Assembly: GCA_020353515.1 (NCBI GenBank)
Contig: CP070695.1
Coordinates: 3,823,908 to 3,887,907, forward strand
Direction: 5' to 3'
Length of the DNA: 64,000 nt
DNA from: Candidatus Heimdallarchaeota archaeon
Lineage (GTDB): Archaea > Asgardarchaeota > Heimdallarchaeia > Hodarchaeales > Hodarchaeaceae
Shown: positions 42,077 through 50,902 of the stretch, piece by piece
How positions within the stretch are numbered: the first letter of the stretch is position 1
Layout of the letters: each line of letters opens with the position of its first letter
Position numbers and translations under genes: made by a program
Notes under the pieces: model-generated
Told to the model about the DNA's origin: nothing
Databases searched by the model: none
Seen by the model: the letters and a program-made list of their open reading frames with translations, nothing else

Positions 42077-42658
42077 CTATTTTAGGATTGGATATTTCTC
42101 TACGAAAGAAAGTTTTGACCATTTTTCGCCTAAGCCAAGGTAATTCCCAACTGGCACTATAATGAATAATAATAGTACTAGAATATAGATAATGTGTTCA
42201 TCGATTAAAGGATTAAATACCATAGTACCTTGAGCTGGAGCAATTATCCACTCCGAGAGGTATACTGAAGATAGAAAGATTATTGTAGAAATACTTGATA
42301 GTCTTACAAGTACACCAGACATGAGTCCAACACCAGCGAACAGCAACATTCCCATATAAGCAATATCTACTAGTTGATATGCATTCCCTAAGGTGTCGGA
42401 GAAGAGGAAGGCGAATGGGCTATTCTGGTTTACACCATAAAACTGCAAAAATCCTTGTGTAGGAGATGCACCAGCAAGCCACGAGTTTTCAGGTGCTGTA
42501 GCAAACCTTAAACCGAACATTTTATCTAAGAATGGCCAAAGGAACACAAAACCCATCGCTATTCTTATTATACCAAGAGTTTTTTGATCAAGATTATATT
42601 TTTCGAACTTAGAATTCAATTCTTTTCCCTCTATGATTAGTTTGATTCTAATTAACAA
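42077..42658 (-). CDS. DoxX-family membrane protein (start probably ~35 nt downstream of 42658)
   Basis: RIAMGFVFLWPFLDK, GASPTQGFL, NPLIDEHIIY, YLGLG. Confidence 0.8.
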   Translation of the reverse strand: MLIRIKLIIEGKELNSKFEKYNLDQKTLGIIRIAMGFVFLWPFLDKMFGLRFATAPENSWLAGASPTQGFLQFYGVNQNSPFAFLFSDTLGNAYQLVDIAYMGMLLFAGVGLMSGVLVRLSSISTIIFLSSVYLSEWIIAPAQGTMVFNPLIDEHIIYILVLLLFIIVPVGNYLGLGEKWSKLSFVEKYPILK

Positions 42659-42665
42659 TTGTTAA
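42652..42665. promoter_or_regulatory. Perfect 14-bp palindrome TTAACAATTGTTAA, candidate operator
   Basis: Lies between the divergent DoxX and M50-like genes; partial copies at 41690-41699 and 41935-41944. Confidence 0.45.
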
Positions 42666-42720
42666 ACTAGATATATTATCTTTAGGTTTTGTTTTTCGGA
42701 ACCCTTATTATTGAGATTAT

Positions 42721-43404
42721 TTGTTTAATTATTTGGATATAATGAAAAGAAAAGAACATGAATCGCTTTTAGTTGTAAAAAAAAGTAAATTTCTATTTTC
42801 AATTACATTCACTTTCGTACTTCCAATCTGTACCGTGTTCTCTCCACTTCCATTGTTAATTTTCAATATCCTTTATTTTCCTTTTACTCTAGCTCATGAA
42901 GTAGGACATTTCGTTGTAATAAAATTAGTTTTACCATCATTGGATCCTCATTTAAAGTTCTATATTTCCAATGGAGAATTTTGTTGTGCATGTTTAACTA
43001 CTAATGAATTTCCTCACTGTTGGCAATCTATTATTGCCATGTTTGCTGGATCTACTTCAGTAATCACTTTAGCAATTCTAGGTTCATTGTTTTGGATGAA
43101 ATCGGGGAGTTTAAATGATACAGGAAAGTATTATCTTACTTTTGGCGTATTAGCTGATCTTCCCAACCTTTTACCTATTTTACCCTCTACTTTAAGGTTT
43201 GTTAACGATGGTTTTGCAATAAATTCTTATCTCTGCCAGATGGGATATTCATTCTCCTTATCAAATAAGATATCATATCTTTTTTCAGTAATCTCGATTC
43301 TAATGGTTCTAACATCCTTCTTCTTCCTTGGGATGTTTCTTTACCGCTTAGGTGAACATCTAGTAACTAAATTCGAAAAAGGAGAAATGAATGAATCAAT
43401 TTGA
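42721..43404 (+). CDS. Membrane zinc metalloprotease-like protein (M50-like)
   Basis: TLAHEVGH inside a hydrophobic segment, FAG, NLLP...NDG. Confidence 0.65.
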   Translation: MFNYLDIMKRKEHESLLVVKKSKFLFSITFTFVLPICTVFSPLPLLIFNILYFPFTLAHEVGHFVVIKLVLPSLDPHLKFYISNGEFCCACLTTNEFPHCWQSIIAMFAGSTSVITLAILGSLFWMKSGSLNDTGKYYLTFGVLADLPNLLPILPSTLRFVNDGFAINSYLCQMGYSFSLSNKISYLFSVISILMVLTSFFFLGMFLYRLGEHLVTKFEKGEMNESI

Positions 43405-43419
43405 TTACTCATAACTATA

Positions 43420-44157
43420 TCAGTTTTTGCTAAGAATATCTATTTTCAAAAGGTTTTCAGGAGGTTCTTGCGCATTAATAGACCAATCATACTTTATATA
43501 TTTGATTCTCGCCTTTTTGTAGGTTTCAATGATTGACTTTTCAGCGTCCTGTAGATATTTCAATATGAATCCTTTCACTCCACCCTGAATCTCAAAATCT
43601 TTCGTATACCACTTGAATATAGGATTTAAATATAAAATATCCTTCTCTGTATCTAAGAAGACATGATCCTTATCATTAATGAAACTTAATGTAAGTGAAT
43701 CCAAAAATTTATCTAAAGTTTCTGGATCGAAAAGTCTCTTAGGTAAATTGGGACACGATTTTGAAGCACAATTGATTGCAAAGTGAATTCTGGGATCTTT
43801 GAAACGTTTCCGTAAGATTTTATTCTCTAGATTACGTAAATTGATTTTTTTTCCTGCCACATTGAATCTTCTTAAAAAGAAGAATCTTATTTTATTGAAG
43901 AGAGAAAGATTCCCTTTCCAGTTTGGATTTCGCTCTAATTCTATATATACTCCTTTAATCGTAAGTATATTGTAAGCATTTAACCAAAATGCGAACTCTT
44001 CGTTCTGATTCATGTTATGTAAGTCTGCTGTTTTCAGGTGTTGAACTTGATCAATTAACCATTCGTCTTTCTTTAACTTTTCATAGTTTACGAGACCATT
44101 ACTATCTATATATGGTTTAAGGGCACTTAAATGGTCAAAAGGAGTTGTAGAGGACAT
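43420..44157 (-). CDS. DUF547 domain protein
   Basis: AFWLNAYN, DPRIHFAINCASKSCP, IFKWY, YDWSIN. Confidence 0.9.
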   Translation of the reverse strand: MSSTTPFDHLSALKPYIDSNGLVNYEKLKKDEWLIDQVQHLKTADLHNMNQNEEFAFWLNAYNILTIKGVYIELERNPNWKGNLSLFNKIRFFFLRRFNVAGKKINLRNLENKILRKRFKDPRIHFAINCASKSCPNLPKRLFDPETLDKFLDSLTLSFINDKDHVFLDTEKDILYLNPIFKWYTKDFEIQGGVKGFILKYLQDAEKSIIETYKKARIKYIKYDWSINAQEPPENLLKIDILSKN

Positions 44158-44392
44158 TGATACTCAGATATTACTTGAGAAAATTCCAATTATAAGGAAT
44201 TCTAGAAAAAATTCAAAATCTTGGTTATTAAAAATAATAATGGGTTTGGATGTGGGTTTTTATGTTCGAAAAAAGAACAAACATACAAAATAAATAATCT
44301 TGAACCAATATAGAATGTTCAGAAATCAACAGTTTTGGACTATAAACAAAAATTTGATTCAATATCTGTAATAAAAGATAGAGTTGAAAGTT

Positions 44393-44896
44393 ATGGGAAA
44401 AACAGAAGAGAATTTAATGGCAGCATTTGCTGGTGAAAGTCAGGCAAATCGAAAATATCTTGCATATGCAAAAAAGGCAGAAAAGGATGGATTTCCTCAA
44501 GTAGGACGTCTTTTTCGTGCAGTTGCACATGCAGAAACCGTGCATGCACATAGTCATTTACATCTTTATGGTGGAATTAAAACGACTCTTGAAAATATTA
44601 AGGCAGCAATTGAAGGAGAACATTATGAATTTACTAAAATGTACCCTGAATTCTTGGAAGACGCCAAAGAGGAAACACAGAAGGCTGCAGAGCGAACTTT
44701 TGATTTCGCTAATCAAGTAGAGAAAATTCACCATGAATTATATTCACGAGCACTACAAGCGATTGAGGATGGAAAAGATCTCCCAGAAAAGACGATGTAT
44801 GTGTGTGAAGTCTGTGGCTATACCGTTGAGGATGGAATCCCAGACAAATGCCCTATTTGCAACACCTCCCACGAAAGATTTGTTAAGATAGAATAA
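44393..44896 (+). CDS. rbr: Rubrerythrin
   Basis: AFAGESQANRKY, AETVHA, EKIH, C-terminal CEVCG...CPIC rubredoxin site. Confidence 0.95.
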   Translation: MGKTEENLMAAFAGESQANRKYLAYAKKAEKDGFPQVGRLFRAVAHAETVHAHSHLHLYGGIKTTLENIKAAIEGEHYEFTKMYPEFLEDAKEETQKAAERTFDFANQVEKIHHELYSRALQAIEDGKDLPEKTMYVCEVCGYTVEDGIPDKCPICNTSHERFVKIE

Positions 44897-44948
44897 GAAT
44901 TTTCTATCCACTTCTATTCAATTTTTCATGAGATTAGGTGATAATGGA

Positions 44949-45512
44949 TTGACATTTGAGAATTTGGTTAAGAGAAGAAGAGCATATAGATCATTAGAAC
45001 CGGTCAAAATTACACAAGATCTAATTGAAGAAACAGCACGAGTAGCTCAATTAGCTCCTTCGTGCTTCAACAAACAACCATGGAGATATGTATTTGTTTA
45101 TGATAAAACAACTCTCACTAAATTGCAAACTGAAGGTCTTTCGAAAGGAAATCAGTGGGCAAAAGCTGCTAGTATGATCATTGCAGTATTTTCAAGAGTC
45201 GACATGGATTGTGTAATTGGTGATCGCCAGTATTATCTGTTTGATTCTGGTATGGCAACAGCAATAATGATTTTACACTTAACTGATCAAGGTTTAGTTG
45301 CGCATCCAATTGCAGGATTTGATCCAGTTAAAGTAAAGGAACTTTTGGAAATTCCTAATGAGATGCATCTGATAACCTTAATAATCGTTGGGAAAAAATC
45401 CAATACAATTCCAGACTTCTTCAAAGACTATCAAAAGAAAAGTGAAGTAACACGTCCTGAACGAAAATCACTAAATGAATTCATCTATTTAAATAAATAT
45501 ATTGAAAAATAA
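44949..45512 (+). CDS. Nitroreductase family protein
   Basis: RRAYRS, APSCFNKQPW, GLVAHPIAGFD; likely TTG start after GGTGA. Confidence 0.9.
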   Translation: MTFENLVKRRRAYRSLEPVKITQDLIEETARVAQLAPSCFNKQPWRYVFVYDKTTLTKLQTEGLSKGNQWAKAASMIIAVFSRVDMDCVIGDRQYYLFDSGMATAIMILHLTDQGLVAHPIAGFDPVKVKELLEIPNEMHLITLIIVGKKSNTIPDFFKDYQKKSEVTRPERKSLNEFIYLNKYIEK

Positions 45513-45885
45513 TTTTAATCATTCTTTCTTACTAATAATCAACAATATCGAAGTATTTTTTGGGGGCTCTACACCAAGGACAAACCCAATCATCGGGGAG
45601 CTCTTCAAAAGGAATACCTTGGGCTTCCTCGTCATAGGTATATCCACACATGCGACATTCCCAGATTGCCATTTTTTTACGCCTTAATATAAATTAGAAA
45701 TACTGTGATTAAAATTTTCGGATTGAAAATTTAGTTTTGAAAAAATTATCTACCTACCATCATTCTCATATAAGATGGATAGATAACGAAATTCATATTG
45801 AAAAAAATATATTGCTAAGAATTAATATCTAATCGGAGAGTACTTTGAATTTAATTAGAGAGACTCTGATATATGTGATGAGTAA

Positions 45886-46434
45886 ATGAAAATTACTACT
45901 TTATTAGACGTCTTTAAGAGAAAAAAACATCGCTTGATTAGTTTGGAATATGTCATTATCTGTCAAAATTCTGGACAACCAATCTATGCGAAATGTTGGG
46001 GAAATGTATGCGGGATGTTGGGAAAAAAAGATGAATTGATGACGGCATTTTTAGCTGCTTTGTCCACAATGCCAACGATGTTTGCAGAATCAGACAATCA
46101 ACTCCATAATATGAGTATTGGATCCTTAAAACTAATGTTTTGCCACACAGAATCACAAAATATTATATCTCTAGCATTTCCCGAAAATAATGTAAATGAG
46201 AACACAATGGAAATCATAGAAGCTCTTTTCGAAGATATTGAGCAATTTTTAAACAAAGATTATCAAGAAACTCCTTGGGATAGATTGAACGATCCAAAAG
46301 TCCAATTATTTGAAAAAGAACTGCTTAAGAAAGTCATACATCCTTGGTTTTATCGTATATTACCAAACACTAAAGAGAAACACGAAGTAAATTGTCCAAT
46401 ATGTATGCCAATGATTCTACAATCATGTTCCTAA
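45886..46434 (+). CDS. Longin-like domain protein with conserved Cys/His (paralog 1)
   Basis: YVII-x3-SGQPIY...DELMTAFLAAL...IGSLKLMF resembles the longin beta-beta-alpha-beta-beta pattern; C-terminal HEVNCPIC. Confidence 0.6.
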   Translation: MKITTLLDVFKRKKHRLISLEYVIICQNSGQPIYAKCWGNVCGMLGKKDELMTAFLAALSTMPTMFAESDNQLHNMSIGSLKLMFCHTESQNIISLAFPENNVNENTMEIIEALFEDIEQFLNKDYQETPWDRLNDPKVQLFEKELLKKVIHPWFYRILPNTKEKHEVNCPICMPMILQSCS

Positions 46435-46507
46435 ATATTTTCCCAAAAATGCTTTGAAGTAATCCTAACAACATTAATAAGATTGTATTAATTGACGTGA
46501 GGAATAT

Positions 46508-47605
46508 ATGAAACTCAAAACTGTTTTAAATATTTTTAAGAAAAAGAAAGAATCTAAGGGAGTTAATCTAGAGTACCTAATAATATATGAGGATTCTGGA
46601 CAGCCAATCTATTCCAGATGTTGGGGGACTGTGTGTGGATTGTTAGGAAAAAAAGATGAACTTTTAACCGCATTTTTAGCAGCTGTATCCACAATGCCAG
46701 GAATGTTTGCTGAATCAGACACTAAAGTTCATAGTATGGGAATTGGGTCTTTAAAATTGTTATTTTTCTATACAAAATCAGAAAATGTTATCTGTGCAGC
46801 GTTTAAAGAGGGAGAGATAAACAATGAAGCAATGGAAACTATTAATACCCTCTTCAATAGTATTTCCTATTTATTAGATGAGAAATACCAAGAAACACCC
46901 TGGGATCGATTAAATGATCCAAAAGTTCAAGCATTTGAAAAAGAACTCCTTTCAAAGATCATTTACCCTTGGTTTCATGTTGCCTCCCCAGCTGATGGCA
47001 GTTCACATGAAGATGATTGTCCTCTATGCCTGCCAACAATAACCACTAGTAATAAGGAGCTCCCTGTTTGGGGAAGAATCAAGAACAGTTATTCAACCAA
47101 GACACAAACATTGACAGAAGTTGAAACACAATATGGAACTCTAAAAATAGGTGATCCTGCTCCCAACTTCGTAGCGGAAACAGATGAGAATGAAACAATA
47201 ATACTTTCTGATTTTCAATACAGAAAGAATGTAGTACTCTTCTTTTACCCTAAAGCGAATACACCTGGATGTATAATTGAAGCACAAGGATTTCGTGATG
47301 CTTACAATGAGCTGAAAGATTTAGATGTAGAAGTCCTTGGGATTTCAGTTGATGATAAATCTGATCTAAAATCCTTTAGAAATGACCAACAATTAACATT
47401 CCCGCTAGTATCTGATCTAAAAAAGGAAATTACGACAAATTACGGTTGCTTAAACGATGAATGGGGAATGGCAAACCGATTAACCTTTTTAGTTGATAAA
47501 CAAGGAAAGATCAGGAATATTTGGAACTTGACAGGGAAGTATGCTCAAACAAAACTAGCACAGCACGCCCTTGCCATTAAACAATTCCTTTTAGAATTAG
47601 AATAA
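46508..47605 (+). CDS. Longin-like domain (paralog 2) fused to a C-terminal BCP/PrxQ peroxiredoxin
   Basis: The N-terminal ~180 aa are strongly similar to 45886-46434. From ~47141: LKIGDPAPNF, FFYPKANTPGCIIEA, VLGISVD, RLTFLVDKQG. Confidence 0.8.
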   Translation: MKLKTVLNIFKKKKESKGVNLEYLIIYEDSGQPIYSRCWGTVCGLLGKKDELLTAFLAAVSTMPGMFAESDTKVHSMGIGSLKLLFFYTKSENVICAAFKEGEINNEAMETINTLFNSISYLLDEKYQETPWDRLNDPKVQAFEKELLSKIIYPWFHVASPADGSSHEDDCPLCLPTITTSNKELPVWGRIKNSYSTKTQTLTEVETQYGTLKIGDPAPNFVAETDENETIILSDFQYRKNVVLFFYPKANTPGCIIEAQGFRDAYNELKDLDVEVLGISVDDKSDLKSFRNDQQLTFPLVSDLKKEITTNYGCLNDEWGMANRLTFLVDKQGKIRNIWNLTGKYAQTKLAQHALAIKQFLLELE

Positions 47606-47653: not shown

Positions 47654-48637
47654 TTGGTAGGTTTAATTAGTGATTTTGATGTTATAGTTGTAGGAGGGGG
47701 TCCTGCTGGTCTTTCTGCAGGAATAATTTCCTCATTGAAGGGATTAGTCACAGCAGTTTTTGAAGGGGGAACATGGGGAGGATTATTAAGCACCATCTAC
47801 CCGAAAAAGAAAATCTATAATTATCCTGGGACGCCTCGTATACGTGCAGAACATCTCGTTTCAGAGTGGGTTCGTCAAGCTGCAGATCATGGAGTCCATC
47901 TCATAAAAGAGCGGGTAACTAGGATTTACAAGAACCTTCAGGTTGAAACTTCCGAAGATACAATCTATCAGGCAAAATCAGTTATCATTGCAACGGGAAT
48001 GAAACCTAATGAATTAGGGATCCCTGGTGAATCAAAACTCTCTAAAAAGGACAGAGGGGTATACCCTTACGTAACTGAACCTGAAATCTTTTATAACCGT
48101 CGTGTATTAGTTGTAGGTGGTGGAGACACCGCTATTGATGCGGTCATCGATCTAAACAAAATTGCTAAGAAAGTGTATCTAGCACACCGTCGAAGTGATT
48201 TCAGAGCTTCGGAATCAAACTTGGAACTGGTAAAAAAGGAAGAAATTGCCGAAATCCTAACAAATGTAACAATAAGAGAGATTCTTGGCCAACGTAAAGT
48301 AGAGGGAGTAATTCTAGAGAATGGTATCACCCATGAGAAAATAGAACTAAATGTTGAGAAAGTCATTCTCGCGGTAGGTTTAAAACCAAACACAGAGATT
48401 TTTGACAATCTAGGACTAGAATTTCAAGGAAAGTTCCTTAAAACTGATGAACTTCAGCGTACAAATATTGAAGGAGTCTTTGCAGCTGGAGATATTGTAA
48501 CTCCCTACCAGCTAGCTACATTGGCAGCTGCTCAAGGAGCCCTAGCAGCACATGGGGCTTATCTTTATATCCGTGATCCATACTGGAAACAGGAACACAT
48601 TAAAGCGAAATCTGATATTAAACGAGAGATTGTCTAA
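47654..48637 (+). CDS. TrxR-fold ferredoxin-NADP+ reductase (YumC-like; no CxxC)
   Basis: GGGPAG, IYPKKKIYNYPG, GGGDTA, HRR, AAGD; GVYPYV sits where TrxR has GVSYCATC. Confidence 0.75.
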   Translation: MVGLISDFDVIVVGGGPAGLSAGIISSLKGLVTAVFEGGTWGGLLSTIYPKKKIYNYPGTPRIRAEHLVSEWVRQAADHGVHLIKERVTRIYKNLQVETSEDTIYQAKSVIIATGMKPNELGIPGESKLSKKDRGVYPYVTEPEIFYNRRVLVVGGGDTAIDAVIDLNKIAKKVYLAHRRSDFRASESNLELVKKEEIAEILTNVTIREILGQRKVEGVILENGITHEKIELNVEKVILAVGLKPNTEIFDNLGLEFQGKFLKTDELQRTNIEGVFAAGDIVTPYQLATLAAAQGALAAHGAYLYIRDPYWKQEHIKAKSDIKREIV

Positions 48638-48679
48638 AGTATCTTTAAAGAAGTGAATTATCTGCGTCGAGGAAGAAAA

Positions 48680-50035
48680 ATGAAGGTTGTAGTTATTGGT
48701 GGTAACCCTGCAGGGTTAAGTGCTGCAAGTGCAATCCGTAGGATCCATTCTGATTGGGAAATTGATGTATACGAAAAAGACCAATATGTCTCCTATGGTG
48801 CATGCGGAATACCCTATTATGTCGCAGATGAGGTCAAGAATTTAGATCAATTAATTACACTTACAAAAGAAAAACTTGAAGAACATAGAAATATTCCAGT
48901 CCATTTATTTCATGAGGTTATTAAAGTCGACTTTGAAGCCAAAATGGTTTTAGTAAGGGATCTTAAGAGTCCTAAAGAGTTTAATAAACCATATGATCAT
49001 TTGATTATTGCTACTGGTGCTAAAGCTAAATCTGATCCGTGTTTAGACATTGATCACCCTCGAATTTTCAAAGTTCACACTTTAAATCACGCAGAGCATT
49101 TGAAATCATTTTTAGAGAATAATACAATTGATTCTGCAGTAATTATTGGGAGTGGTTATATAGGATTGGAGATGTTAGAATCTTACATAGCTCAAGGGAT
49201 AAAAGGAGAGCAAATCAGTGTTATCGGACCACGATTAATCTTTCGATCCCAAACCCAGAAATATGTGGAAGCAGAACTAAAAAATTATGGAGTGAATCTA
49301 ATTCTTCAAAAACGAGTTAAGAGAGTTGAACCTATTTCTGATACTCATTTGAAGGTAATTTTAGACGACGGACAAATTATTACAACAGATCTAATCCAAA
49401 TTTCGATAGGTGTGGTTCCAGCAACAGATATGTTCAAAAATACAAATCTTGAACTACTCCCCAATGGTGCCATTATTACAAATCAATTTATGCAAACTAA
49501 TATCCCAGATGTTTATGCAGCTGGCGATTGTGCCTCTTCTTATCATCAAATTCTAAAGAAAAATGTGTATATCCCTCTAGCTCCAGCAGCTAACAAGCAA
49601 GGCCGTATAGCAGGATCTTACATTGCTGGAAAGAAAGATTCCCCCTTTCCAGGTGTTGTAGGTACAGCTATCTATAAGGTACTTGATTTGTATTGTGCTA
49701 CAACAGGAATAACTCAAAAAGAAGCAAAACAACTAGGATATGATGCTCAGTTCATTAATATTGAAAGTATGGAAATTGCACATTATTATCCTGGAGCTAA
49801 AAAAATGTCCGTCTCACTTATTTTTGACGCAGAAAGTCATCTACTTTTAGGAGCGGAAATAACTGCTCCAAGTACATTAGGGGCAAAGAAAATTGATGTG
49901 TTTGCAACTGCACTTGCAGCAAAGATGCGTATAGACGACATTCAAAAGCTTGATCTTTCTTATGCTCCACCATTTGCTCCAGTATGGGATCCAATTTTAA
50001 TAGCTGCAAATGTTGCAAGGAAAAAATGTAGATAG
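48680..50035 (+). CDS. CoA-disulfide reductase / NADH oxidase family flavoprotein
   Basis: SYGACGIPY single-Cys active site, GSGYIGLE, YAAGDC, LSYAPPF. Confidence 0.9.
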   Translation: MKVVVIGGNPAGLSAASAIRRIHSDWEIDVYEKDQYVSYGACGIPYYVADEVKNLDQLITLTKEKLEEHRNIPVHLFHEVIKVDFEAKMVLVRDLKSPKEFNKPYDHLIIATGAKAKSDPCLDIDHPRIFKVHTLNHAEHLKSFLENNTIDSAVIIGSGYIGLEMLESYIAQGIKGEQISVIGPRLIFRSQTQKYVEAELKNYGVNLILQKRVKRVEPISDTHLKVILDDGQIITTDLIQISIGVVPATDMFKNTNLELLPNGAIITNQFMQTNIPDVYAAGDCASSYHQILKKNVYIPLAPAANKQGRIAGSYIAGKKDSPFPGVVGTAIYKVLDLYCATTGITQKEAKQLGYDAQFINIESMEIAHYYPGAKKMSVSLIFDAESHLLLGAEITAPSTLGAKKIDVFATALAAKMRIDDIQKLDLSYAPPFAPVWDPILIAANVARKKCR

Positions 50036-50059: not shown

Positions 50060-50902
50060 TTAATCATTCGGCAAAAAATAATCTTTTTCTTCCTCAAATA
50101 ACTTAACTAATTTTCCTAGGACAGCTGACTCATCAGGGGAGATATGTTCATCTTGTTTTGATATTTCCTTAACAGCTGGGAGAAAATTATTCAGGAAATT
50201 TTCCCTTGTTATTCTTTCAGTTTCCCCTAATTTCCCAGAGTTACGAGCCACTGTGAAAGCTCTGTAAAAAAGCTCCTTGTTTTTCCCAAGGTTTTTGATT
50301 ATCTCTCTTTCTTCTTCAGATAATGTCCTTTTTTTGAGAACAGCCTCTTTAAACCCGTTTAAAACCTTATCAAAACCCCCAAGGCTTGGATGTAATTCAA
50401 CTATATAATGTAATATATTTCGAATATTGATTACCCGAATCGGATCATCCTCGATAATCGCATAAGAATAACCTTGAACTTCCATCATATGAAGAGCATA
50501 CGCCACTGTGTCAGTCTTTTTGAGAACAACAGGCGATTTTAACATTACTTCTCGAATTGGTTTTTCTAAATTTATAGGGATTTCATTGCATACTCTTCGA
50601 AGTAGAGATCGTTCAGTAAATATCCCTTCTATCGATTTTTCTGAACCTACAACAACTACTGAGCATTTCTGTTGATCAATCATCAACCTAACTACTTCTT
50701 TTACAGGCATATTATGGGGAACTTCGAGCGCTAGTGATTCGATTCCACCAACTTCTTCAAGAGAATCCTCTAATATCGCTTTTTCGATTCTAGAATCCGT
50801 TAGTGGTTTTCTCTTTCCAACCACTATATCGCTGTTACAATTGGAACAATAAAGGGATCCAGGTAGGTTCTCATGCCCACAAACAGTACATTTTATCATC
50901 AA
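50060..50902 (-). CDS. Zinc ribbon + CBS pair + helical (TerB-like) domain protein
   Basis: CTVCG...CSNC; GIFTERSLL CBS motif; C-terminal QDEHISPDE. Confidence 0.7.
   Translation of the reverse strand: MMIKCTVCGHENLPGSLYCSNCNSDIVVGKRKPLTDSRIEKAILEDSLEEVGGIESLALEVPHNMPVKEVVRLMIDQQKCSVVVVGSEKSIEGIFTERSLLRRVCNEIPINLEKPIREVMLKSPVVLKKTDTVAYALHMMEVQGYSYAIIEDDPIRVINIRNILHYIVELHPSLGGFDKVLNGFKEAVLKKRTLSEEEREIIKNLGKNKELFYRAFTVARNSGKLGETERITRENFLNNFLPAVKEISKQDEHISPDESAVLGKLVKLFEEEKDYFLPND

Follow-up and report, generated by a model that had tools for sequence, protein, structure and literature searches.

A predicted longin domain with a conserved cysteine cluster is joined to a BCP-type peroxiredoxin in Hodarchaeales archaea

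In a stretch of 64,000 nucleotides from a Candidatus Heimdallarchaeota genome (order Hodarchaeales; contig CP070695.1, positions 3,823,908 to 3,887,907; hereafter, the window), two adjacent genes code for the paralogous proteins P0001 and P0002, which share an N-terminal domain predicted to be a longin and the second of which continues into a peroxiredoxin (Prx). The longin-Prx fusion is genuine and conserved, apparently undescribed, and built from known kinds of domains, and, together with its standalone paralogue, it belongs to a conserved Hodarchaeales peroxide-defence operon. We tentatively read the pair as a peroxide-defence module, that is, a longin heterodimer whose Cys/metal cluster would accept oxidation from the Prx. 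The literature searched contained no paper that brings longins and peroxiredoxins together in a relevant sense, in line with the original prediction on this DNA, which had not recognized the architecture from known proteins; the relatives of P0001 and P0002 are annotated publicly as "hypothetical protein" and "peroxiredoxin".

Longin domains are "eukaryotic signature" modules that have expanded in the Asgard archaea, and, to our knowledge, almost no Asgard longin has a known function. Through this pair, the function of one family of Asgard longins becomes accessible to experiment, the biochemical handle consisting of a conserved Cys/His cluster, an attached and easily assayed enzyme, a paralogue as dedicated partner, and a defined operon for oxidative stress. 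Moreover, the Hodarchaeales are a host group central to the debates on eukaryogenesis and oxygen adaptation.

Architecture and fold of the two paralogues

P0001 (182 amino acids [aa]; positions 45886 to 46434) and P0002 (365 aa; 46508 to 47605) are encoded by open reading frames on the plus strand. In a BLASTP comparison, 107 of 181 positions are identical (59%; E value, 2e-83), and the motifs SGQPIY, CWGxVCG, GKKDEL(M/L)TAFLAA, YQETPWDRLNDPKVQ, and H-x3-CPxCxP are all common to both proteins, as the original prediction had listed them for a pair of close paralogues. The longin core of P0001 spans approximately residues 20 to 158. Alignments place the longin domain of P0002 at positions 46568 to 47092, followed by a conserved tail helix, V-W-G-R-I-K-N-S-Y, that serves as the interdomain linker, and by the Prx domain at positions 47147 to 47518. 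P0001 terminates before the tail helix and ends in Q-S-C-S, with an additional invariant cysteine, C181. The remaining cysteines are C26, C37, C42, C86, C170, and C173 in P0001 and C38, C43, C96, C171, C174, C255 (peroxidatic), and C314 in P0002. The N termini of both paralogues (45886 to 45936 and 46508 to 46561) carry a conserved basic amphipathic stretch, MKxxxxLxxFKRKK, which is modelled with low confidence and which most members of the wider family lack; a helix that binds a membrane or a partner is one possibility.

The C-terminal half of P0002 (residues 214 to 337) matches the Pfam AhpC-TSA model with an E value of 4.9e-38 (130.3 bits against a cut-off of 26) and contains a TPGC active site, which agrees with the earlier proposal that the second paralogue continues into a peroxiredoxin of the bacterioferritin comigratory protein (BCP) type. 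The nearest NCBIfam model is that of the BCP-type thiol peroxidase, with a score of 108 bits against an equivalog cut-off of 140, and among solved structures, Sulfolobus solfataricus Bcp1 is nearest (3drn_A; E value, 1.7e-28). In the 16 fused sequences aligned, we could recognize the PxxxTxxC motif and the conserved Arg, corresponding to P248, T252 (at least 90% conserved), C255, and R324. The peroxidatic C255 (codon at 47270 to 47272) is the sole Cys invariant in the Prx domains of these proteins, C314 being limited to a close group of them, and the fifth residue after the peroxidatic cysteine (CP+5) is never a Cys; in P0002, it is a Gln (TPGC-IIEA-Q). The free BCP of the same genome (151 aa; 38% identical to the fused Prx) presents the canonical T-P-G-C-T-K-E-A-C with the resolving Cys. 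Since the free enzyme retains this residue, the sequences indicate that the fused Prx has specifically dispensed with an internal resolving Cys. Thus, compared with BCP/PrxQ enzymes such as Bcp1 (3DRN) and the free BCP of the genome, the AhpC-TSA domain, the PxxxTxxC motif, and the conserved Arg are all present, whereas the CP+5 resolving Cys is missing and an N-terminal longin of about 200 residues is added.

As for the N-terminal domain, a longin fold is understood here as the element order β-β-α-β-β-β-α(-α), with a five-stranded antiparallel sheet, α1 on one face, and α2/α3 on the other. The AlphaFold2 (AF2) model built from a 28-sequence alignment (mean predicted local distance difference test [pLDDT] score, 73; predicted template modelling [pTM] score, 0.72) has the order β-β-α-β-β-β-α-α, with strands at residues 22 to 27, 32 to 37, 73 to 78, 81 to 87, and 92 to 99 and helices at residues 41 to 67, 105 to 125, and 137 to 158, and the same topology recurs in the model of full-length P0002. 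A Foldseek search against the PDB returned 41 matches with E values of 1e-3 or lower, and those listed are to longin or roadblock domains only, namely AP sigma, zeta-COP, the TRAPP subunits Trs20/sedlin/Tca17, Sec22b, VAMP7, LAMTOR, and MglB, with E values of 1e-5 to 1e-3. In a VIA-align search, which is independent of Foldseek, ranks 1 to 29 are occupied by longins only (Z scores of 12.9 to 9.6). The top match is sedlin (2j3w_A; Z score, 12.9; root mean square deviation [rmsd], 3.4 Å over 132 residues), followed by TRAPPC2L/C4, Sec22, VAMP7, AP mu/sigma, SRX, Fuzzy (Z score, 10.7), and Lst4, with a Lokiarchaeota longin (Z score, 9.9) and Mon1-Ccz1 (Z score, 9.7) lower in the ranking. The best roadblock domain, 3kye_A, ties at a Z score of 9.6 at rank 30, and the others score 7.9 to 8.6.

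At the sequence level, the sole Pfam longin model matched is PF19036 (Fuz_longin_1, the first longin domain of Fuzzy/Mon1/HPS1), which scores 24.8 bits with P0001 (E value, 2.6e-5) and 15.6 bits with P0002, both below the gathering threshold of 26.1 bits, and which aligns over about half of its length, in the N-terminal half only. The threshold is passed by three other family members, P0033 (27.1 bits), P0037 (27.9 bits), and P0040 (28.9 bits). Furthermore, the closest ESM-Atlas clusters are Asgard longins, of whose proteins 22 to 48% carry PF19036. An NCBIfam scan gave no model for the domain, and the profile of the 45-member family found no significant match among all PDB sequences (best E values, 0.11 for a cyclodipeptide synthase and 0.26 for TRAPPC2), so sequence alone does not place it. 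Because the AF2 topology, the Foldseek and VIA-align matches, the PF19036 match, and the Asgard Atlas neighbours all point the same way, the N-terminal domain is, on the models, a longin, as the original prediction had it; its membership in the Mon1/Fuzzy subfamily is borderline by sequence. The pairing of two paralogues recalls Mon1-Ccz1, but the longin domain is single here and tripartite in Mon1/Fuzzy/HPS1, and the Cys4(His) cluster, the tail helix, and the Prx fused to one copy set the pair apart from the PF19036 longins, the small Asgard ones included. Sedlin/TRAPPC2, synbindin, Sec22/VAMP7, and AP sigma/mu share the topology and match over the entire core (Z scores of 11 to 13 and an rmsd of about 3 Å over 120 to 132 residues), whereas the sequence identity is 5 to 14% and they have neither the Cys cluster nor an enzyme fusion.

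The cysteine cluster and the origin of the fusion

In 28 aligned N-terminal domains, with a mean column identity of 73%, the residues C37, C42, H166, C170, and C173 (P0001 numbering) are invariant. The Cx4C motif lies at the end of β2 and the start of α1, and the Hx3CPxC motif lies just after helix α3; on the DNA, C37/C42 of P0001 correspond to positions 45994 to 46011 and H166/C170/C173 to positions 46381 to 46404, and the equivalent residues in P0002 are C38/C43 and H167/C171/C174. A family profile search retrieved 64 representative clusters at E values of 1e-3 or lower, 41 of them at 1e-10 or lower, most of which are 160 to 240 aa long and whose named members are Asgard only (Hodarchaeales, Heimdall- and Thorarchaeota labels). 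Three hallmarks recur in the family, that is, LEYLIIxxxSGxPIYSxC(F/W)Gx(F/V)C, giving Cx4C; a second Cys pair past α3, in the form Hx3CPxC or Cx5CP; and a tail helix, IWxxLxxxY, which P0002 retains as its linker. An alignment of 45 members shows C170 to be invariant, with a conservation of at least 90% for C37, C42, G30, and P32. All four Cys positions are retained in most of the family at large, and since the spacing of the second pair ranges from Cx2C to Cx5C, metal binding may explain the pattern better than a fixed disulfide would.

Most of this wider family has no Prx. Judging from the alignments, the Cys cluster is older than the Prx fusion, and it follows that it did not arise for the Prx. 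The Prx is the only domain fused to the family among the 64 profile matches, barring three long repeat proteins, which we took as spurious. About 130 orthologous groups of roadblock/longin proteins are known from Asgard genomes, and lineage-specific fusions are numerous among them (bioRxiv 10.1101/2020.10.19.343400). In our scan of 301 Asgard genomes, generic longin matches occurred in 282, and full-length matches to the Cys-cluster form (E value below 1e-40) were restricted to a few families. A third, weaker family member of 155 aa is encoded elsewhere in the genome (G000:C1:1604147-1604512, minus strand, equivalent to L013:5061-5528); it has Cx5C instead of Cx4C, no C-terminal Cys pair, and a retained basic tail helix. 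A peroxiredoxin gene lies about 5 kb from it, and we rejected the two as a second longin-Prx association, the genes being on opposite strands with five unrelated genes between them.

A putative split zinc module on a longin protein has been described in folliculin (FLCN)/Lst7, where the conserved Cys/His motif HxCx2H...Cx2C was proposed to bind zinc (PMC3438538, PMC4703059). That module precedes the longin, whereas here the motifs stand at the β2/α1 junction and after α3, with neither a DENN domain nor, in the alignments, an invariant Arg; the likeness of the two putative metal modules may be one of description only.

Word-index searches of sequences from NCBI, JGI, ENA, and Logan recovered the fusion in 13 other clusters at 90% identity (361 to 369 aa), plus a partial one, and the standalone form in at least 15 clusters of 182 to 184 aa; the named fused relatives come from metagenome-assembled genomes of Hodarchaeota, Hodarchaeales, Promethearchaeota, or Thorarchaeota. 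By exhaustive profile search, we found further fused groups below 50% identity, represented by P0053 (360 aa) and by P0072 and P0104 (341 and 348 aa). The matches listed from the 301-genome scan include frames of 365 to 374 aa in the window's own genus only, each beside a standalone copy, and the standalone copy adjoins the fusion gene in the same orientation in every close relative examined. In addition, contigs from a second sequencing study span positions 46860 to 47119 and 47038 to 47188 with zero differences, thereby covering the Cys motif, the linker, and part of the Prx domain, and the frame of P0002 has no internal stops.

In the tree of the N-terminal domains, the standalone proteins form a clade (support, 100/96) nested in a clade with the N-terminal domains of the close fused proteins (100/95). 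Because of this nesting, the tree indicates that the pair arose by tandem duplication and that one of the copies is without the Prx half. P0072 and P0104 are placed in another clade on a long branch; however, by an approximately unbiased test, one clade comprising every fused and standalone sequence was not rejected (P = 0.34), and features of the linker and of the Prx C terminus are common to the three fused groups. A single origin of the fusion is therefore possible on the sequences at hand.

Possible roles of the longin pair

Because no resolving Cys is present within the fused Prx, we tentatively favour a mechanism, to which we would give a little less than an even chance, in which the Prx domain would react with peroxide and the sulfenate oxidation would be handed to the thiolates of a longin cluster, either its own or that of the partner. 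The two Cys motifs would build a single metal-knuckle site, with Zn as the most likely metal and Fe as a possible one, stapling the C-terminal tail to the longin core; one site is suggested because, from the longin topology, the ends of β2 and α3 should share an edge of the domain and because the spacing of the second pair varies. By analogy with the longins of Mon1-Ccz1 or FLCN-FNIP, the two longin domains would pair as a heterodimer, and the pair would work as an internal module for resolving and redox switching, with a change of assembly, localization, or activity as its possible output. The rubredoxin, rubrerythrin, and flavoprotein encoded beside it would form a parallel peroxide-reducing chain driven by NAD(P)H, with a common promoter region.

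In the Prx relays Orp1-Yap1, Tpx1-Pap1, and Prx2-STAT3, a fast peroxidatic Cys oxidizes the slower thiols of a partner. Natural fusions of Prx to redox partners include Prx-glutaredoxin (Grx) and Prx-nitroreductase, and zinc-thiolate switches are found in Hsp33 and RsrA. The logic proposed here would be that of the Prx relays, with a Cys4 zinc site as the switch. None of these relays, fusions, and switches is known to use a longin, and in our case, the putative acceptor is covalently fused and duplicated. If the cluster were indeed a Prx-driven switch, the protein would represent a new kind of natural Prx fusion; we know of no earlier prokaryotic relay in which a Prx is integrated with a longin platform.

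The heterodimer was modelled with residues 1 to 200 of P0002, P0001, and two Zn ions, as a check suggested along with the original prediction. The interface score derived from the predicted aligned errors (ipSAE) was 0.55 (0.52 to 0.55 between runs) against 0.00 for the best of three controls, where the mark for a predicted complex is reached by 58 of 80 solved complexes and by 2 of 110 mismatched pairs, and where scores up to 0.60 take in only 7 of the 80 solved complexes yet both of the passing mismatches; solved longin heterodimers that the model may remember could also inflate the value. The runs agree in at least 50% of the contacts, and the pLDDT of the partner is at least 71. The models thus lend weak support to a P0001/P0002 longin heterodimer.

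Several observations weigh against the proposed relay. BCPs of the 1-Cys type that depend on external reductants are numerous, so an enzyme without the resolving Cys need not have an internal acceptor. The AF2 model of full-length P0002 leaves the two domains unfixed to each other (pTM, 0.51), and hence, no contact between the peroxidatic Cys and the cluster is predicted. The tail residues 160 to 180 have a pLDDT of about 51 to 53 in the single-domain model (in the full-length model, residues 171 to 190 of P0002 reach about 79), and given the carriers without Prx, the primary role of the cluster may be purely structural. In the distant fused clade of P0072 and P0104, the second motif holds only one Cys, and P0072 sits outside the operon context; directly upstream of it, we found no recognizable family member (for the 219-aa gene there, the hmmsearch E value is 0.023, at 2.9 bits), so the pairing of a standalone with a fused copy is not universal. 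Finally, no thiol reductase able to reset the switch is conserved in the operon, either in the window or in the related loci.

Some of these points agree better with a simpler role, which we consider rather unlikely but worth serious attention, in which the Cys4(His) cluster is an inherited structural zinc site and the longin merely dimerizes, localizes, or docks an ordinary 1-Cys BCP, e.g., at the membrane through the basic N-terminal helix and the amphipathic tail or onto another protein, while cellular thiols supply the reduction. Longin domains are typically assembly platforms and 1-Cys BCPs are common; Prx-less relatives of varied context also carry the Cys cluster and the IWxxLxxxY tail, both of which are older than the fusion; and a docked enzyme fits a full-length model with no fixed interdomain geometry. 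On the other hand, the resolving Cys was lost specifically in the fused Prx and is retained in the free BCP, the natural Prx fusions that are known join redox partners (Grx, thioredoxin, nitroreductase), and the 73% mean column identity of the N-terminal domains suggests more than a tether. Even if the cluster were a structural zinc site only, the protein would still be an undescribed peroxiredoxin architecture, and its longin would belong to a definable, Asgard-only subfamily.

It is less probable still that the knuckles bind Fe, as a rubredoxin-like Fe(Cys)4 site, or an Fe-S cluster, and serve as an electron-transfer centre or as a sensor labile to O2 or reactive oxygen species, with electrons coming from a Cys-free flavoprotein and feeding the peroxidase chemistry. 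This flavoprotein, of the thioredoxin reductase (TrxR) fold and ferredoxin-NADP reductase (FNR)-like (47654 to 48637, plus strand; Pfam Pyr_redox_2), is encoded 48 nucleotides (nt) past the fusion gene, which it follows in all four related loci. Its best NCBIfam match is TRX_reduct (237 bits, below the cut-off of 343); it carries G-G-G-D-T-A-I-D in place of the TrxR signature, and the orthologues in the window and in loci L001, L003, and L005 have zero Cys, so that it cannot be a dithiol reductase and is, by its fold, probably a TrxR-type ferredoxin/rubredoxin reductase. Its constant presence and its fold favour an Fe centre, as does the resemblance of the CPxC and CxnC knuckles to the rubredoxin motifs of the neighbouring rubredoxin and rubrerythrin. 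However, the adjacent rubredoxin would already serve the flavoprotein as a natural substrate and, with the rubrerythrin, would complete a natural chain; a Zn site would accommodate at least equally well the changes in spacing of the second pair and the clades that have a His or miss a Cys; and we know of no peroxiredoxin that is reduced by a one-electron metal centre.

The original prediction went further and coupled the oxidized longin to the regulation of a small GTPase or of a trafficking-type pathway, a model that we regard as improbable. The longin class does form platforms for guanine nucleotide exchange factors and GTPase-activating proteins (GAPs), and the closest score is to the longin-1 model of Mon1/Fuzzy/HPS1. 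Furthermore, a Prx-less member lies a few kilobases downstream of an Arf-like GTPase in 11 syntenic loci of another Asgard family, and on an unrelated metagenome contig, a GTPase from the same BLAST cluster is encoded no more than 2.5 kb away; however, since the 11 loci are kin, the independent observations number about two, and GTPases are abundant in Asgard genomes. Neither the window nor the four related Hodarchaeales loci have a GTPase within the operon or next to it, and we found none of that BLAST cluster within about 7 kb of the Prx-less members sampled in Hodarchaeales. The GAP-type longins (FLCN/NPRL2/SMCR8) combine a GP motif directly before β2 with an Arg finger (PMC12290439). Here, the loop before β2 reads S-G-x-P-I-Y, with G30 and P32 one residue apart and at least 90% conserved in the wide family, that is, G-x-P and not GP, and no Arg is found among the invariant or near-invariant columns of the 28- or the 45-sequence alignment. 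The coupling to GTPase or trafficking signalling is accordingly unsupported for this operon.

The run of genes in those syntenic loci (L026 to L036 and L040, e.g., L032:7096-12966) is codirectional in 11 genomes of several genera of the other Asgard family. It consists of the Arf-like GTPase (293 aa, with an N-terminal extension), three coiled-coil proteins, two small proteins, one of which is OB/ChsH2-like, an acyl-CoA dehydrogenase, and, at the end, the Cys-cluster longin. As a broader speculation, equally improbable in our opinion, the Cys4(His) longins could be redox-switched platforms specific to the Asgard archaea, ancestrally regulating an Arf-like GTPase or membrane module, with the Hodarchaeales having captured a Prx and so made the switch H2O2 specific. 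If true, this would be a prokaryotic case in which peroxide signals reach trafficking regulators of the eukaryotic type, in a lineage that has been proposed as the sister group of the eukaryotes. As to an assembly or annotation artefact (a chimeric contig or the read-through of two genes), a caveat attached to the original prediction, it is refuted for practical purposes by the same architecture in 13 other 90% clusters and two clusters below 50% identity, by the second-study contigs that cross the junction unchanged, and by the uninterrupted frame.

The peroxide-defence operon

The gene order rubrerythrin, nitroreductase, rubredoxin (minus strand), longin, longin-Prx, TrxR-fold flavoprotein, with or without a CoA-disulfide reductase (CoADR)-like gene, is kept in four related Hodarchaeales loci from three assemblies (L001, L003, L004, and L005). 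The neighbours named in the original prediction (rubrerythrin, nitroreductase, FNR, and CoADR) are all present, and the oxidative-stress cluster that they form is conserved in the relatives. In the window, the rubrerythrin gene (44384 to 44896, plus strand; Pfam Rubrerythrin and RUBY_RBDX), also conserved in the relatives, is followed by that of a nitroreductase-family flavoprotein (44928 to 45512, plus strand; PF00881; E value, 2.5e-16), which occurs in L001, L003, and L004 and is absent in L005. A rubredoxin gene that had been overlooked (45532 to 45672, minus strand) is transcribed divergently from the longin pair and encodes a 46-aa protein with CxxCG...CPWC, which matches NCBIfam RubredRD with an E value of 3.6e-10 and 39.7 bits, under the cut-off of 90 bits; its orthologues in all four related loci match Pfam Rubredoxin. 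Downstream of the TrxR-fold flavoprotein, the CoADR/NADH oxidase-like flavoprotein (48653 to 50035, plus strand) matches NCBIfam CoA_CoA_reduc with an E value of 3.4e-126 and 421.6 bits, below the cut-off of 578.8, and its active-site Cys is C51, in SYGACGIPYY. This gene is accessory, being found in L003 and L004 and not in L001 and L005. The gaps between successive plus-strand genes from P0001 to the CoADR-like gene are 73, 48, and 15 nt.

The divergent intergenic region between rubredoxin and longin contains a 22-nt box, GATAACGAAATTCATATTGAAA (45782 to 45803), which is near-invariant in four genomes amid otherwise divergent spacers and which we take to resemble a Fur-family box. We consider it a candidate operator; with up to three mismatches allowed, neither the window nor the genome has a second copy, and since it occurs at one locus only, no regulon can be defined. 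A FUR-family gene lies inside the island of two relatives; there is none in the window, and the only FUR matches of the genome are outside it.

Other genes accompany the island. Two unannotated genes without a Pfam match (193 and 227 aa; 42077 to 43404 and 43420 to 44157), which look membrane-like by eye, are found with the oxidative-stress island in the relatives, as is a DUF547 protein, the companions in L001, L003, L004, and L005 measuring 180, about 226 to 238, and about 241 to 243 aa. The gene upstream of the distant fused P0053 gives a weak zinc-ribbon match. In the window, a protein with a zinc ribbon and a CBS pair (50060 to 50902, minus strand) is encoded between the redox genes and a 2-oxoacid:ferredoxin oxidoreductase, a position that is conserved in the relatives.

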